Assembly (NCBI GenBank): GCA_040880425.1
Contig: JBBDIL010000020.1
Span: forward strand, 23,312 to 87,311
Direction: 5' to 3'
Length of the DNA: 64,000 bases
Origin: Burkholderiales bacterium
GTDB taxonomy: Bacteria; Pseudomonadota; Gammaproteobacteria; Burkholderiales; Eutrophovitaceae
The position numbers were made by a program, and so were the translations under genes. Positions within the stretch are counted from its first letter, which is position 1; each line of letters begins with the position of its first letter. The notes under the pieces were generated by a model. That model searched no databases, was not told the DNA's origin, and saw only the letters and a list, made by a program, of their open reading frames with translations. This document shows positions 1 through 35,085 of the stretch, one piece after another.

Positions 1-517
1 GGAAGGTTCCGAAGATATTGCGAGCCTGTTTGTGCATCTGCTGCTGCATTTCCAGAAACGCCGTCGCACTCTGCTCGAGGTAATTCGACATCAACCCCTG
101 CATTGCCGGCCCCTGCATTTTCACGAACTGGGACCAGGCCTCTGCGTTCACCGCCGGGTTCTCGCCGAATTTCGGAAGATTCTGCTCCTGCAGCTTGCGT
201 TGAATCTCGATGAAGGTCTGGATGTTTTTCTCGAGGTAATTGCCCATCATGCCCTGCATCGCGTTCCCGTAGAATCGGATGATCTGCGCGAGCATGGCCG
301 AGGTGAACATTGGCGCGCCGGCGCTTTCCTCTTCCAGGATGATCTGCATCAGGATGTTGCGGGTCAGGTCTTCCTCGGACTTTGCATCCACGACCTTGAA
401 TGCGACCTGGTCGAGCACGAGTTGTTTGACGTCAGCGAGCGTGATGTAACTGCTGGTCGCCGTGTCGTACAGGCGGCGGTTCGGGTACTTCTTGATCAGG
501 CGGATCTCTTCACTCAT
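1..517 (-). CDS. phaR: PHA synthesis repressor PhaR; the C-terminal end runs off the window edge
   Basis: It is absent from the ORF track because there is no stop codon in the window. My minus-strand translation from ATG 517..515 gives MSEEIRLIKKYPNRRLYDTATSSYITLADVKQLVLDQVAFKVVDAKSEEDLTRNILMQIILEEE, the conserved PhaR N-terminal region. The gene lies next to phaB and phaC. Confidence 0.85.
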   Translation of the reverse strand, partial: MSEEIRLIKKYPNRRLYDTATSSYITLADVKQLVLDQVAFKVVDAKSEEDLTRNILMQIILEEESAGAPMFTSAMLAQIIRFYGNAMQGMMGNYLEKNIQTFIEIQRKLQEQNLPKFGENPAVNAEAWSQFVKMQGPAMQGLMSNYLEQSATAFLEMQQQMHKQARNIFGTF

Positions 518-694: not shown

Positions 695-751
695 TGCCAT
701 TGTGCGATGCGGTAATTATGTTTGTCTAAAAATTAAGTTGACAATAATACC

Positions 752-780
752 TTATCAATATCAGTAAGATAATGTATAAT
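752..780 (+). promoter_or_regulatory. Candidate sigma70 promoter P2 (-35 TTATCA 752-757, 17-nt spacer, -10 TATAAT 775-780 preceded by TG)
   Basis: Consensus -10 hexamer in the AT-rich island. The predicted TSS is near 787. Confidence 0.45.
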
Positions 781-786
781 TTTCAA

Positions 787-1251
787 GCCCGATAGGCTTT
801 GCCGCACTGAAGCAGAAAGAGGCCTGAACAGGCTTTGGGATGCGACAGCGGTCGCAGTGAAGCAGGTCGACCGGCGCGCCATGGGGCAGCCAAAAAAAGG
901 CGGGCTGGTGACTGCCGGACTTTCAGATGGCCGGTTGGGTGGCATGGACGTTGGAACGAGAATTGCGTCCTATTGATGCAAGAGCAGATGTTGGCAGTGG
1001 GGAGTCGGGTTGGAATCGAGACTCCCGGGCGGGCTGGATGCCTTGAAGTCCCAGCAGGAATCCGGAACGGCTGCAGGAATGGCGGCCGGGCAGGCTGAAG
1101 CGGCGGCGATGAGAACCGTAACAGCAGCGGCGGAGGCGCTAGACGCCTCTGCGGGGAAGTAAGGTTAGCGCAAGTCTCCTCCCCCTTTACCTAAAGGTTT
1201 CGCCTTTAGTAAAGGTTCAGCCCCGGCGGGCAACCGCCGGGGCTTTTTTTT
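787..1251 (+). ncRNA. Orphan non-coding transcription unit, candidate structured sRNA of unknown family; the 5' end is uncertain (about 701 if P1 is used)
   Basis: It has promoters upstream and a strong intrinsic terminator at its 3' end. No protein-like ORF is present: the only track ORFs are 835..1098(+) and 733..945(-), and both translate to low-complexity sequence. There are many local hairpins and 12 GGA triplets between 838 and 1157, often as CAGGAAU, CUGGAUG or UUGGAAU. Confidence 0.5.
1220..1251 (+). terminator. Rho-independent terminator (10-bp GC stem GCCCCGGCGG/CCGCCGGGGC, GCAA loop, T8)
   Basis: Perfect stem with a GNRA-type tetraloop and T-run, read directly. The T-run is present only on the + strand. 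Confidence 0.85.
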
Positions 1252-1421: not shown

Positions 1422-2165
1422 TCAGAACATGTGCTGGCCGCCATTGATCGAGATATTGGCGCCGGTAACGAAGGCCGCTTCGTCGGATGCCAGGTAAATG
1501 ATCAATCCGGCAACCTCTTCTGGTTGTCCCAGCCGGCCGAGCGGGATCTGCGGAAGGATTTTCGAGTCGAGGATATCCTGCGGGATCGCGGTCACCATCC
1601 TGGTGCCAATGTATCCGGGCGAAATGGTGTTGACGGTGACGCCTTTTCTGGCCACTTCCAGCGCCAGCGCCTTGGTGAATCCGTGCATTCCGGCCTTGGC
1701 GGCCGAGTAGTTGGTCTGGCCGAACGCGCCTTTCTGGCCGTTAACCGAGGAAACATTGATTACCCGGCCCCAGCCGCGGTCGACCATGCCGTCCATCACG
1801 TGCTTGGTCATGTTGAACACGCTGTACAAGTTGGTGCGGATGACCGTGTCCCAGTCCTCCTTGCCCATTTTCTTGAACGTCATGTCGCGGGTGATGCCGG
1901 CGTTATTCACCAGGACGTCGACCGGGCCCACGTCCGATTCCACGGTCTTGACGCATTCTTCGCAGGAGTCGTAATCGGATACGTCTACCGGGTATGCATG
2001 AAACGCGTAGCCGCGCTCCTTCATCGATGCCAACCATGGCTTTGCATTCTTGTTGCCGGGCGAGTGCGTGGCGACGACGGTATAACCCTGGTCGGCCATT
2101 TTCGTGCAGATCGATTCGCCAAGTCCGCCCATGCCGCCGGTGACGACCACGATGCGTTTTGCCAT
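1422..2165 (-). CDS. phaB: Acetoacetyl-CoA reductase (SDR family)
   Basis: The ORF track 1422..2183 translation contains VVTGGMGGLG, NNAG and YSAAK motifs and resembles PhaB end to end. I prefer ATG 2165, which is preceded by AAGGGGGA, over TTG 2183. Confidence 0.9.
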   Translation of the reverse strand: MAKRIVVVTGGMGGLGESICTKMADQGYTVVATHSPGNKNAKPWLASMKERGYAFHAYPVDVSDYDSCEECVKTVESDVGPVDVLVNNAGITRDMTFKKMGKEDWDTVIRTNLYSVFNMTKHVMDGMVDRGWGRVINVSSVNGQKGAFGQTNYSAAKAGMHGFTKALALEVARKGVTVNTISPGYIGTRMVTAIPQDILDSKILPQIPLGRLGQPEEVAGLIIYLASDEAAFVTGANISINGGQHMF

Positions 2166-2207
2166 CTTTTCCCCCTTGTTCAATTTCGTGTTGGTGGTTG
2201 CCGTCGT

Positions 2208-3971
2208 TCAGCCCCTGCGTTCCTTCACATATCGGCCGGGCGCAGGCTCGGTCGGCTGATACTGCCTGCTCCCGGTCGCGCGTGGAGCGGGGCGGGTTTT
2301 CCCCGAACGCGCCGCGAGCCATGCGCTCCAGTGTCGCCACCAGCTTCCCGGCTGCCGTTGCGTCATGGCCTGCCATTGCCGGGGATCCCGAACCAGACTG
2401 CCACCGGTCCAGAACTCGCGCCGGTTAAGAGAGGCGGGATTCACCACGCCGGCAACATGCCCGCTCGCGCCAAGCACGAATTCGGTGCGAGGACCGAGCA
2501 ATCTCGCGGTGTGGTATGCGCTCTCCCACGGCACGATATGGTCTTCCCGCGCAGCGAACACGTAAGCCGGCAGCTGTAATTTGCCGAGATCCACGTCAGC
2601 GCCGCACAGGCGGAGTCTACCGGGAACCCTCAGATTGTTCTCGAGGTACATGTTGCGCAGGTAGAACGCGTACAGCGGGCCCGGCAGATTCGAACCGTCG
2701 GAATTCCAATAGAGCAGATCGAACGGCTTTGGTTCGCGGCCCATCAAATAGTTGTTCACCACGAAATTCCACACCAGATCATTGGCGCGCAGCGTTGCGA
2801 AAGTAGCAGCGAGCCGCGACCCGGGCATCAGACCGCCTGCCTGGTACTCTGCCTCGCAACGCTCGACGTACGCCTCATCCACATAGACGCTGATGTCGCC
2901 GGTATCCGAAAAGTCCAGCATGGTGGCGAGCAGCGAGAGGGAGTGAGCGCGCTTACGCCGCTTCGTGGCGAGTACCGCCAGTGCGGTTGCCAACAGGGTT
3001 CCGCCGACGCAAAAGCCGAGCGTGTTCACCGTGCGGCTGCCGGTGATCCGCGAGATTGCATCGAGCGGTGCGAATACGCCTTTCTCCATGTAATCCTCCC
3101 AGCCGAGCGCGCCGAGTTCTTCCGGGATATTGCGCCACGAGACGATGAAGGTGGTGAAGCCCTGTTCCACGCAATAGCGCACGAAGGAGTTTTGCGGCTG
3201 CAGATCCAGGATGTAGTACTTGTTGATGAATGGCGGCACGATCAGCAACGGACGCTCGTACACCTGATCCGTGGCCGGCGCGTACTGAATCAGTTGCATG
3301 ACTTCGTTCTCGAAAATCACGTCGCCGGGTGTGAGCGCCAGGTTGCGGCCGATTTCGAAAGCACTCTCGTCGGTCATCGAAATGCGACCGCGCGCGAGGT
3401 CGCGCGACAGGTGCTGCAGCCCGTGGGCAAGGCTTTCGCCACGCGTTTCGATCGCGGCCTTGATCACGTCCGGATTGGTCGGCGCATAGTTGTTGGGCGC
3501 CAGGGCATCGATGATCTGACGCGTGACGAACCGCAGTCGCTTGCGTTTTTCCGGTTCGAGCGTTGCCAGTTCGGCGATGTCGTGCAGGTAGGCCGCATGC
3601 AGTGCGTAGCCGCGATGGAGCAGGCGAAACCAGGGGATTTCACGCCATTCCGGGCTTTCGAAGCGACGGTCGACGGATTGGGTCCCGGGGGCATTGGTTG
3701 CGTCGACGTCGTTCCAGAGTGCAAGCCAGTCGCGATAGAAGCGGGACTGCAGGTCGGCGAGTTTTTCGCGCTGTGCGGCGCTGCCGGTCAGTGCCGAGAC
3801 CAGTTCCGCGTAATCCAGGCCTTGCGACGGCAGATCGCGCAGAAATGCGTCGACCAGCGCCTGTCCGGCGTCGGTCAGGGCACGGACGACGTCTGCCGGG
3901 TTGTCTTTCGGGGAATTCATCGGAAAGGGCGCGGCGCGCAGGTTGCGCGTTGCATCCATTCTTGGCGGCAT
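2208..3971 (-). CDS. phaC: Class I poly(3-hydroxyalkanoate) synthase
   Basis: The 587-aa ORF has the lipase-box GFCVGG and is similar to Cupriavidus-type PhaC throughout (KYYILDLQP, NLPGP, HIVPW). An alternative start is ATG 3920. Confidence 0.9.
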   Translation of the reverse strand: MPPRMDATRNLRAAPFPMNSPKDNPADVVRALTDAGQALVDAFLRDLPSQGLDYAELVSALTGSAAQREKLADLQSRFYRDWLALWNDVDATNAPGTQSVDRRFESPEWREIPWFRLLHRGYALHAAYLHDIAELATLEPEKRKRLRFVTRQIIDALAPNNYAPTNPDVIKAAIETRGESLAHGLQHLSRDLARGRISMTDESAFEIGRNLALTPGDVIFENEVMQLIQYAPATDQVYERPLLIVPPFINKYYILDLQPQNSFVRYCVEQGFTTFIVSWRNIPEELGALGWEDYMEKGVFAPLDAISRITGSRTVNTLGFCVGGTLLATALAVLATKRRKRAHSLSLLATMLDFSDTGDISVYVDEAYVERCEAEYQAGGLMPGSRLAATFATLRANDLVWNFVVNNYLMGREPKPFDLLYWNSDGSNLPGPLYAFYLRNMYLENNLRVPGRLRLCGADVDLGKLQLPAYVFAAREDHIVPWESAYHTARLLGPRTEFVLGASGHVAGVVNPASLNRREFWTGGSLVRDPRQWQAMTQRQPGSWWRHWSAWLAARSGKTRPAPRATGSRQYQPTEPAPGRYVKERRG

Positions 3972-4044: not shown

Positions 4045-4824
4045 TCAGACCGGCACGTGTCCGAGAACGGCCTTGACCAGGGCGATGGAGGCAATCCCGG
4101 CGCCGATCAGCAGCACCTGTTCCAGCGTTGCGCGCAGCTCGGTCCGTCGGTGCAGGCCAGGTATCAGGTCGGCGATGGCCACGTAGATCATGCTCGCTGC
4201 GGCGAAGCCCAGCAGCGTCGGGATCCACGATTGCAGCGACTGCAGGGCGGCGTAGGCCAGCAGTCCGCCGATCAACGTGGCGCCGCTCGACATCAGGTTG
4301 AAAGCGAATGCCCTGGTGCGGGAATAGCCCGAATGCAGCAGTACCAGAAAATCGCCGACTTCCTGCGGAATCTCGTGCGCGATGATCGCCAGCGCGGTCA
4401 CGATGCCGAGTTCGATATCGATCAGGAATGCCGCCGCAATCAGGACGCCGTCGACAAAGTTATGCACCGTGTCGCCGATCAGGATCATCAGTCCGCTGCG
4501 GCCGTGGTCCGAATGTTGTTCGCGGACTTCATGGGCCTCGCAGACCTCATTGTGACAATGCCGCCACAGGATCAGCTTCTCGAGAATGAAAAACGCCAGG
4601 ATGCCCAGCAGCACGGTCATGGTCAGCGTACGGACGTTGTCCGTTGCTTCGACCGCATGCGGCAGGATCTCGAGGAATACCGCACCCAGCAGGGCGCCCA
4701 CCGCATAGCTGATCAGCGAAGAAATGCGTGCCGGCGATGCGCGCAGGGCGAACGCGGCGGCCGCGCATACGGACAAGACAGCGCCGGCGAAGGTTGTCAG
4801 GACAATCCAGGCAAGAGGCGACAT
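4045..4824 (-). CDS. ZIP-family divalent metal (zinc) transporter
   Basis: A 259-aa polytopic membrane protein with HNFVDG and HEIPQEVGDF signatures and a His-rich loop. Confidence 0.8.
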   Translation of the reverse strand: MSPLAWIVLTTFAGAVLSVCAAAAFALRASPARISSLISYAVGALLGAVFLEILPHAVEATDNVRTLTMTVLLGILAFFILEKLILWRHCHNEVCEAHEVREQHSDHGRSGLMILIGDTVHNFVDGVLIAAAFLIDIELGIVTALAIIAHEIPQEVGDFLVLLHSGYSRTRAFAFNLMSSGATLIGGLLAYAALQSLQSWIPTLLGFAAASMIYVAIADLIPGLHRRTELRATLEQVLLIGAGIASIALVKAVLGHVPV

Positions 4825-4907
4825 GAGAATGGAATGGGGAAGAAGCCGTCGAGTATAGCGGGCGTGTCAAGCTCATCGGTCGGGCGCAACCGGTATCGAG
4901 CGGCTGG

Positions 4908-5657
4908 TCAGGAGGTCAGCCAGACCAGCGCGGCCATCCTTCCGGTGACCTTGTCCCGGCGATGTGAAAAGAAGCGCCGCGGATCCGAGCAGGTACACAG
5001 GTCGCCGCCATGCACTGCGCCGACACCGGTCGCGGCGAGGCGCTGGCGCGCGAGCTGGAACAGGTCGGCCATCCATTTCCCGTGGACATGCGGTCGAAAC
5101 GCCCGGGCGGCTTGAGCGTCGCGGGCAACGAATGCCTGGTATACGTCTTCGCCGACCTCGAAGGCGTCCGGTCCGATCGCCGGTCCGAGAAAGGCGATCA
5201 ACTGTTCCGGCGGGCGTGCCATCGCTTCGATGGTGTTCTCGATCACGCCGGCGGCAAGGCCGCGCCAACCCGCGTGCGCTGCGGCAACGACGCTTCCCTT
5301 GCGGTCGGCGAGCAGTACCGGCAGGCAGTCCGCGACCAGCACCGCGCACACAGTGCCCGGACTGCGCGCGAAACTGGCATCGGCTTCCACCGGTGCCGTC
5401 CAGGTGTCGGCTTCCATCACCCGCGTGCCATGCACCTGGTTGAGCCACGCCGGTTCTGCCGGCAGCAGCGCGCGCAGCCGTGCGCGATTTGCCGCGACTG
5501 CCTCCGCCGAGTCGTTGACGTGATCGCCGAGATTCAGGCTCTGGTACGCGCCGCTGCTGTGGCCGCCGGCGCGTGTCGTGATCAGGGCCTGCACGCGCGC
5601 CGGGGCCGGCCAATCGGGTCGGATCCAGTCGGAAACCGGTTCACTCCGTGGGGCCAT
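4908..5657 (-). CDS. pgeF: YfiH/PgeF (DUF152) purine-nucleoside phosphorylase / laccase-domain protein
   Basis: Contains the family motifs LVADCLPVL, AHAGWRG and CTCSDPRRFFSHRR. It sits directly downstream of rluD, as in E. coli. I chose ATG 5657 (MAPRSEP...), which overlaps the rluD 3' end by 17 nt. Confidence 0.8.
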   Translation of the reverse strand: MAPRSEPVSDWIRPDWPAPARVQALITTRAGGHSSGAYQSLNLGDHVNDSAEAVAANRARLRALLPAEPAWLNQVHGTRVMEADTWTAPVEADASFARSPGTVCAVLVADCLPVLLADRKGSVVAAAHAGWRGLAAGVIENTIEAMARPPEQLIAFLGPAIGPDAFEVGEDVYQAFVARDAQAARAFRPHVHGKWMADLFQLARQRLAATGVGAVHGGDLCTCSDPRRFFSHRRDKVTGRMAALVWLTS

Positions 5658-27368: not shown

Positions 27369-27445
27369 AGGCGCGTAGCTCAGCTGGTTAGAGCATCACC
27401 TTGACATGGTGGGGGTCGTTGGTTCGAGTCCAATCGCGCCTACCA
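27369..27445 (+). tRNA. tRNA-Val (anticodon GAC)
   Basis: I folded the cloverleaf manually: acceptor AGGCGCG/CGCGCCT, D-arm GCTC..GAGC, anticodon loop TTGACAT, T-arm GTTGG-TTCGAGT-CCAAT, encoded CCA. Confidence 0.9.
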
Positions 27446-35008: not shown

Positions 35009-35085
35009 CGGGGCGTAGCGCAGCCTGGTAGCGTACCTGCATGGGGTGCAGGTGGTCGCAGGTTCAAATCCTGCCGCCCCGACCA
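35009..35085 (+). tRNA. tRNA-Pro (anticodon GGG)
   Basis: I folded the cloverleaf manually: acceptor CGGGGCG/CGCCCCG, anticodon stem CCTGC/GCAGG, loop ATGGGGT, T-loop TTCAAAT, encoded CCA. TATAAT at 34991-34996 lies upstream. Confidence 0.9.

Follow-up and report, generated by a model that had tools for sequence, protein, structure and literature searches.

A putatively decayed phasin gene with a conserved candidate anti-Shine-Dalgarno RNA element between phaR and phaB in Burkholderiales

Background

In the pha (polyhydroxyalkanoate, PHA) cluster of a Burkholderiales bacterium (Eutrophovitaceae), phaB and phaR are separated by a gap of 904 bp. Its plus strand carries a unit with a promoter at one end and a terminator at the other, divergent from phaR and convergent with phaB. 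We studied this unit in a stretch of 64,000 nt (GenBank assembly GCA_040880425.1, contig JBBDIL010000020.1, positions 23,312-87,311 of the forward strand), which is referred to as the window and provides the numbering used throughout. The unit is non-coding and probably PhaR-controlled, lies in the slot of the phasin gene phaP, and is likely to make a regulatory RNA. Our preferred reading is that of a decayed phaP unit with a PhaR-controlled transcript, the working part of which would be a small RNA (sRNA) at its 3' end, with a double hairpin and an anti-Shine-Dalgarno (anti-SD) seed, acting as a functional analogue of the sRNA MmgR; we give this reading a probability of roughly 0.58. The part under selection is formed by the last ~80 nt, i.e. 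a CU-rich seed, an AU-rich hairpin and the terminator, and not by the GGA-rich body. An initial annotation of this DNA had recorded the hairpin and the terminator, had left the seed unflagged, and had proposed a structured RNA of the Csr/Rsm protein-sponge type. Of this proposal, the non-coding promoter-to-terminator unit divergent from phaR is retained as probably regulatory, but the Csr/Rsm assignment is not.

In Sinorhizobium meliloti, MmgR limits the accumulation of polyhydroxybutyrate (PHB) as well as phasin levels (PMC8401924), and PhaR directly represses mmgR (PMC12542648). The palindrome YGCRNYGCR bound by PhaR was defined in the same species and verified by electrophoretic mobility shift assay; two copies of this box flank the -35 element of phaP1 and phaP2, and one copy is found at the sRNA gene mmgR (PMC12542648).

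For comparison, we used 80 loci from species-representative genomes, collected with the PhaR protein as query and all belonging to metagenome-assembled genomes of uncultured Burkholderiales/Betaproteobacteria. The closest relative among them is the sister locus L001, whose PhaR and PhaB are 95% and 93% identical to those of the window. In addition, metagenome contigs were scanned with a context-blind DNA pattern consisting of the seed, the 3' base of the first hairpin (P1) and the start of the terminator. The pooled set comprises 140 loci with a defined phaR start.

Results

A conserved element at the 3' end of the unit

When the whole gap was compared by blastn with the 80 PhaR-selected loci, one conserved block was found at 1170-1253 in addition to the phaR-proximal promoter region. 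With 70-96% identity, ~55 loci share the block, in each case antisense to phaR. The corresponding 3' element (1170-1251, plus strand), a candidate anti-SD double-hairpin sRNA, starts with the seed CUCCUCCCCCUUUA at 1176-1189, which is single-stranded up to 1183. It is followed by the hairpin P1 at 1184-1215, the AU-rich hairpin of the initial annotation, and by the terminator, likewise annotated before, with its stem at 1219-1244 and a U8 tail to 1251. For the terminal 89 nt, the folding energy is -43 kcal/mol (z=-5.4). Exact copies of the 14-mer CTCCTCCCCCTTTA occur in 53 loci, once per locus, and an alignment of 51 distinct copies of the element contains 30 invariant columns, including C-T-C-C-T-C-C-C-C-C-T-T-T-A.

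RNAalifold and the folds of single sequences both give a CU-rich, unpaired 5' part, followed by P1 and then by the terminator, and the seed remains unpaired whether the 89-nt or the full 551-nt RNA is folded. The base of P1 is invariant (CCUUU/AAAGG) and its distal part occurs in three forms, all perfect hairpins, namely two long hairpins of different sequence and one short version with a GAAA/GCAA tetraloop. With a covariance model (R1), 90 copies were realigned and 82 distinct sequences scored. In this alignment, which is fitted to the model and somewhat favours the structure, 93% of the cells are paired and compensatory changes occur in 15 of the 23 pairs, with support for both helices. The covariation score is 0.263 compared to 0.129 in shuffles, none of which (0/500) reaches it, and slid controls score far lower. 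Within the PhaR-selected loci, mean pairwise identity amounts to 0.990 in the seed, 0.90 on the 3' side of the P1 base, 0.63 in the 5' flank, 0.35 in the terminator loop and 0.49 at the fourfold-degenerate sites of phaB.

R1 matches the 64-kb window only once (95.5 bits) and each locus once, by which a repeat or mobile element is discarded; the plasmid collection searched does not contain the element. Diverged versions are present on the minus strands of L060 (5126-5207), L069 (5133-5217) and L051 (483-564), the latter two having been found by R1 after blastn had missed them, and in all three the P1 loop holds another CU-rich motif (CUCCUCCUCC / CCCCCUCCU). A small open reading frame (ORF) on the minus strand, driven by the complement of GGGGGAGGAG, was also considered; the sequence there reads TTG-CGC-TAA and provides no ORF.

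The promoter and its PhaR-operator-like boxes

The AT-rich island described initially is borne out by a GC content of 0.355 at 601-800. Seven promoter-like sites were found compared to 0.5 expected, and both plus-strand sites proposed earlier, TTGACT-17-TAGTAT (666-694) and TTATCA-17-TATAAT (752-780), are present. The site at 666-694 is a σ70-type promoter with a predicted transcription start at ~701. It is aligned in all relatives and represents the ancestral phaP promoter; TTGACN-16..18-NANNNT is found at this position in 121 of the 140 pooled loci. A transcript that starts at ~701 and includes the whole U-tail, up to 1251, would have ~550 nt, which fits the 465-550 nt estimated before. The site at 752-780 (P2; 10/12 match) is lineage-specific: it is not conserved, and its position corresponds to the 5' untranslated region (UTR) and SD sequence of phaP in relatives; it is not confirmed as a meaningful promoter.

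Two PhaR-operator-like boxes accompany the promoter at 666-694. The upstream box TGCATTGCG (645-653) matches YGCRNYGCR and the downstream box TGCGATGCG (703-711) overlaps the predicted transcription start. This arrangement is general, as all 121 promoter-bearing loci possess an upstream box YGCRNYGC[A/G/C] 15-31 nt (mode 19) before the start of the -35 and a downstream box 7-9 nt after the -10, over the predicted start, and the order of box, -35, -10 and box holds with or without a phasin gene. In Cupriavidus necator, PhaR similarly protects one site upstream of the -35 of phaP1 and one over its start site. Together with two further boxes at 544 and 588, the region has four matches to YGCRNYGCR in 200 nt, compared to 1.27 per kb window-wide. 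The PhaR-box-like sequence annotated previously at 801-813 is not among these matches, being a relic of phasin N-terminal codons (F-A-A-L-K).

Phasin relics and the G-rich body

Many relatives possess an intact ORF of ~180 aa, with its stop codon 10-15 nt before the element, that encodes a phasin (Pfam Phasin_2, PF09361; E=2e-19 and 2e-15). Because this ORF sits upstream of the element in relatives, the unit of the window occupies the phaP slot, in agreement with the position of a PhaR-controlled phasin gene to which it had been assigned. In the window, the corresponding frame has no Phasin_2 match and the small ORFs of the unit have no Pfam match, a phasin hidden Markov model (HMM) gave nothing significant in any frame of the six-frame translation, and no gene is called in the phaB-phaR gap on a 100% identical contig (L199, SRA run SRR27977663). 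These results agree with the annotated absence of a protein-like ORF. They also led us to reject a hidden or frameshifted phasin ORF: without a phasin HMM match in any frame, the region is filed as a relic and not as a frameshifted gene.

Two relics were recognised. The first, at 763-827 (plus strand), derives from the ribosome-binding site, start codon and N-terminus of phaP and was identified by translation, alignment and nhmmer. Its part at 798-827 (TTTGCCGCACTGAAGCAGAAAGAGGCC-TGA) reads FAALKQKEA, followed by TGA at 825-827, and aligns with the phasin N-terminus F-V/A-A-L-N-K-K-Q in the alignment of the phaR-proximal 340 nt. The relic of the 3' end lies at 1082-1162 (plus strand), with the stop TAA at 1160-1162 and a hairpin GCGGAGGCG-CTAGA-CGCCTCTGC at 1128-1150. 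In an nhmmer search with a DNA profile built from 72 intact phaP genes, profile positions 34-81 matched window 763-811 (E=0.042) and positions 512-583 matched 1082-1153 (E=0.041); each match is marginal alone, and the two are collinear and located at the expected gene ends. The same profile detects the relic of the sister locus at E=1.9e-5 and those of other phasin-less loci down to 2e-9.

Between the two relics extends an unconserved G-rich body (828-1081, plus strand), which contains most of the GGA triplets and has no blastn match in relatives; indeed, 800-1093 finds no blastn match in any of the 80 related loci. Compared to the sister locus, the window shows 72-86% identity at 518-717 and 96% in the element, while 718-1033 retains only ~40% with indels, and fourfold-degenerate sites have 59-63%. 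Taken at the level of the sequence, the body of the window is a decayed phasin gene that evolves at or beyond the neutral rate. The motif TTGCNGCRCTGAAsMA of the phasin N-terminus (window 799-815) is still recognisable in most phasin-less loci (also L009, L038, L042, L043, L048 and L073), a persistence that may reflect recent loss or a role at the RNA or DNA level.

The segment 838-1157 contains exactly 12 GGA triplets, as counted in the initial annotation, but this number does not represent an enrichment, since mononucleotide shuffles contain 11.1±2.6 and dinucleotide shuffles 11.1±2.3 (P=0.43). The segment stands above the rest of the window (5.3±2.5 GGA per 320 nt) only because it consists of 41% G; its GGA density falls into the top 1.2% of 320-nt windows. 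CsrA-type contexts are few (two AGGA, one ANGGA). The G/C skew is +0.25 in the body, +0.14 on intact phaP coding strands and +0.165 in other relics, and the body appears to owe its G-richness to the former phasin coding strand. The region 790-1165 folds modestly better than shuffles (z=-2.3), and the local hairpins annotated before appear in the predicted fold with a shift of 1-2 nt. Rfam scans at the gathering threshold and at E≤10 gave no match to a Csr/Rsm family, and tblastn found no CsrA-like sequence within the 64-kb window, which says nothing on the rest of the genome. The reading of the GGA triplets as CsrA sites is an artefact that arose from the base composition of a G-rich coding strand in decay. 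Neither is a link between Csr/Rsm and PHA control new, as had been supposed, because Gac-Rsm control is already known in Azotobacter, where its action on phbR in A. vinelandii has been reviewed (PMC8401924).

Genomic context and loss of the phasin gene

The synteny phaC-phaB-[element]-phaR is common to the relatives. With the context-blind pattern, 117 of 118 matches have a divergent phaR on one side, 340-890 nt upstream, and a convergent phaB/phaC on the other, and the stop codon of phaB is located ~15-270 nt beyond the U-tail. The sole match outside this context (L188) was rejected as a chance match within an unrelated low-GC coding region, without a terminator.

The phasin gene is intact in 77 of the 140 pooled loci, with ~800 nt from phaR to the seed, and partial in 19 loci (671-820 nt). 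No phasin is detectable in the remaining 44, which include the window, and here the distance from phaR to the seed is 341-790 nt (658 nt in the window). Mapped on a neighbour-joining tree of PhaR and PhaB without bootstrap, presence and absence of the phasin need at least 8 changes. Different lineages keep different pieces of the relic, which argues for independent decay, and the shortest loci (L038, L040) are left with the promoter and its boxes, ~200 nt, and the element. As promoter and element are kept where the phasin is gone, selection maintains the PhaR-type promoter and the CU-rich double hairpin, not the protein.

Flanking genes and further features of the window

The gene phaR (2-517, minus strand) starts with ATG at 517 and runs off the start of the window after the N-terminal 172 codons. 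It was identified by translation; Pfam PHB_acc_N/PHB_acc are found on the identical contig L199. A candidate phaR promoter, TTGACC-17-TATTTT, is present on the minus strand at 633-605, as the initial annotation had it, in a region that is conserved in relatives, where the minus-strand -10 is TATAAT. The phaR leader contains an inverted repeat (544-596) with 11-nt arms CGCAGTGCGGC / GCCGCATTGCG, each of which includes a PhaR-box-like YGCRNYGCR (CGCAGTGCG, CGCATTGCG). To judge from its sequence, this repeat may be a site of phaR autoregulation or a leader hairpin.

On the other side of the gap, phaB (acetoacetyl-CoA reductase; 1422-2165, minus strand) is convergent with the 3' element, and the PHA synthase gene phaC (2208-3971, minus strand) lies upstream of phaB. 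The SD regions of phaB in element-bearing loci are rich in G runs such as GGGGAGG, GGGGGGA and GGGAGGAGG (window 2166-2185 and relatives). No SD sequence precedes either of the two candidate ATG codons of phaC (3959-3971), and the gene caller places its start on the identical contig four codons later (583 aa compared to the 587-aa ORF). Adjoining phaC are a gene for a ZIP-family metal transporter (PF02535) and a Cu-oxidase_4 gene (window ~4045-5115; 1-1121 of L199).

Between the terminator of the element and the phaB stop codon, an imperfect 15-nt palindrome GACGCGCAGCGTCAA / TTGACGCGCTGCGTC is located at 1263-1296. The palindrome, of which the box-like sequence CGCGCTGCG forms part, is also conserved in L001. 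Many relatives share a motif GGTGCGYAAAA / AGTGCACAAAA 10-20 nt past the U-tail, which is absent from the window. Two tRNA genes (27369-27442 and 35009-35082) are the sole matches to Rfam at gathering level in the 64 kb.

Discussion

A possible mode of action

Under the preferred reading, PhaR would repress the promoter until PHA granules titrate it away, and the ~550-nt transcript would then be made from the phaP-type promoter. The seed CUCCUCCCCC is an extended copy of the anti-SD core and would pair with G-rich ribosome-binding sites, thereby lowering translation. The 3' module would act in trans and probably in an Hfq-dependent manner, either within the long RNA or as a species of ~75-80 nt after endonucleolytic release; a single-stranded seed followed by a hairpin and a U-tailed terminator is, we infer, the usual build of Hfq-dependent base-pairing sRNAs. 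The unit would then form the RNA arm of the PhaR regulon. The convergent phaB would be one candidate target. All 8 nt of its SD region AAGGGGGA (2170-2177) are complementary to the seed part UCCCCCUU, and the initiation regions of phaB pair better with the seed in element-bearing loci than in element-less ones (-14.3 vs -11.0 kcal/mol, p=0.0013, kinship ignored), while they are not better paired with the generic tail of the 16S rRNA.

A number of points weigh against this reading. The anti-SD seed is generic and no specific target is singled out by it. A duplex-energy scan of the 64-kb window for targets gave its top matches off plausible translation-initiation regions and was therefore uninformative, the SD sequence of phaP was rejected as a privileged target since its complementarity is no more than generic, and the pairing signal of phaB ignores phylogeny, the SD sequences of phaB being ordinary GGAGG types in all loci. 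Binding of PhaR to the boxes is deduced from a motif defined in an alphaproteobacterium. Neither the window nor the relatives have a σ70-like promoter just ahead of the seed, so the 80-nt element has no promoter of its own and a short RNA would have to be cut from the long transcript, i.e. processing is assumed. The element falls below the gathering threshold of every Rfam family, the tree on which phasin losses were counted lacks bootstrap values, and only the PhaR-selected set is unbiased for the seed, its invariance in the metagenome loci being given by construction because the retrieval pattern contains it.

Comparison with known RNAs

The unit has no match in Rfam at gathering thresholds. 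Three families score below them, and membership in each was rejected on this ground: RF02278 (Betaproteobacteria toxic / double-hairpin sRNAs; 29.6 bits in the window and 30.7-33.9 in relatives vs 50, with no match for L051, L060 and L069), RF02837 (anti-hemB; 26.7-33.8 bits vs 49.5) and RF00519 (mmgR, 'suhB'; 29.0 bits vs 41). RF02278 includes ncS03/05/27/62 of Burkholderia cenocepacia (bdhR family) and S17S of Bordetella pertussis, in which an unpaired CU-rich stretch is followed by a hairpin and a terminator; by prediction, their CU-rich stretches mask ribosome-binding sites (PMC5688073). S17S is cut from S17L by RNase E, and ncS27 is processed too (PMC11722255, PMC5688073). Like these RNAs, the element begins at its 5' end with an unpaired CU-rich stretch, which reads (U)GUCUCCUC in the window as in several relatives, and continues with a small hairpin and then a Rho-independent terminator, ~60-90 nt in all; the second CU-rich site in the first loop of L051, L060 and L069 is paralleled in some members (ncS03, S17S). 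However, the alignment is confined to the terminator and the 5' 9-10 nt, and the seed of the element, unlike that of RF02278, runs into C5U3A and forms the base of hairpin 1. Within the 64-kb window and the related loci searched, the element occurs once each, the known family having 3-5 dispersed intergenic copies per genome in Burkholderia, and it differs in being tied to the phaP 3' UTR and phaR-phaB gap and to a promoter with PhaR-like boxes.

With MmgR (αr8) of S. meliloti the element shares an anti-SD motif of the CCUCCC type, a terminator and, by sequence, a promoter with a PhaR (AniA) box. The alignment of the two rests on hairpin and terminator, however, and does not place CU motif on CU motif. 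MmgR has the order hairpin, CU motif, terminator, and belongs to a stand-alone alphaproteobacterial gene, not to a phasin 3' UTR. As module order and lineage differ, we regard the relation as an analogy and not as demonstrated homology. Anti-hemB / ncS04 (RF02837) likewise combines a CUCCUCC motif, a small hairpin and a terminator, but its CU motif sits in a hairpin loop that the element lacks. With CsrB, RsmY and RsmZ the unit has in common that it is non-coding, extends from promoter to terminator and contains GGA triplets; it differs from them in having no GGA enrichment, conservation, Rfam match or repeated A(N)GGA hairpin loops.

Another parallel is offered by sRNAs derived from 3' UTRs, such as CpxQ, which originates from cpxP and belongs to the same regulon. 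As in these, promoter and terminator are common with a coding gene of the response, the 3' UTR is conserved above neutral level, and no promoter of its own is visible. Unlike in these, the parental ORF is lost in about a third of the loci, the window included, so that the mRNA would have become a dedicated non-coding precursor. The searchable literature yielded no report of an sRNA linked to a phasin in Betaproteobacteria. A more far-reaching scenario would see here a so far undescribed RNA arm of the PhaR regulon: a family of anti-SD sRNAs, absent from Rfam, that was born in the 3' UTR of the phasin mRNA in a clade of uncultured Burkholderiales, turned repeatedly (at least ~8 times), with the decay of the phasin ORF, into a non-coding gene of its own operated by PhaR, and feeds back on PHA metabolism, e.g. 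via the translation of phaB. This scenario is tentative, and we hold it for clearly less probable than the reading from which it extends.

Alternative explanations

Instead of acting in trans, the element could serve in cis as part of the phasin mRNA, by influencing its stability or by folding back on its own SD sequence, as the icaR 3' UTR does in Staphylococcus aureus, and the copy in the window would be a leftover not yet erased. In the 77 loci with an intact gene the element is indeed the phaP 3' UTR with a common terminator, and the SD sequences of phaP (GAGG/GGAGG) are complementary to CCUCC. The invariant seed is, however, kept in the 44 loci without ORF, spread over at least 8 lineages, where the neighbouring sequence has diverged past neutral, and the complementarity to phaP initiation regions does not exceed the generic level, which makes a role in cis improbable. 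We judge an effect of convergent transcription to be slightly less probable still. Since no intrinsic-terminator-like site is present on the minus strand from 1421 to 1252, read-through from phaCB would be antisense to the element, and duplex formation or polymerase collision could couple the plus-strand promoter to the fate of the phaCB mRNA; the convergence of phaB in 117 of 118 matches, with its stop so close to the U-tail, is in line with this. Antisense pairing needs no particular sequence, and therefore the 14-nt invariant seed would be left unexplained, as would the covarying hairpins and the plus-strand U-tail.

That the unit is a functionless pseudogene, with promoter, terminator and tail as passive remnants of a dead phasin gene, agrees with the missing ORF and with the divergence of the body. 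It is very unlikely in view of the conservation of the promoter with its boxes and of the element relative to fourfold-degenerate sites in the comparison with the sister locus, and of their retention in every phasin-less lineage. The chances of a Csr/Rsm sponge, finally, in which the GGA-rich body at 800-1160 would titrate CsrA/RsmA, are close to nil; two of the outcomes that the initial annotation itself had named as refuting apply here, namely shuffles that match the GGA frequency and a body that is a decayed phasin gene without sequence conservation in relatives. Its attraction lies in the 12 GGA triplets, some of them in predicted loops, and in their density relative to the window. It founders on a GGA count that composition alone accounts for, the scarcity of A(N)GGA contexts, the lack of an Rfam match, a G-richness that is that of the phasin coding strand, and a body which is unconserved in the sister locus and absent or replaced by the phasin ORF in relatives.

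Conclusions

To our knowledge, no PhaR-controlled sRNA other than the alphaproteobacterial MmgR is known as yet. A review of 2021 termed the riboregulation of PHB synthesis in the model producer C. necator 'undeciphered' (PMC8401924). A conserved anti-SD module on a PhaR-type promoter within the pha cluster offers a concrete and testable candidate for how Betaproteobacteria could control PHA storage after transcription. Moreover, the 140 loci form a graded series, which leads from an intact phasin gene with its tail via a frameshifted gene and relics to a promoter and tail only, and documents a route from an mRNA 3' UTR to a dedicated sRNA gene that has until now mostly been proposed on principle. 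If the more far-reaching scenario is true, the element would be the betaproteobacterial counterpart of MmgR, and its loci a natural series of a 3' UTR becoming an independent sRNA gene.

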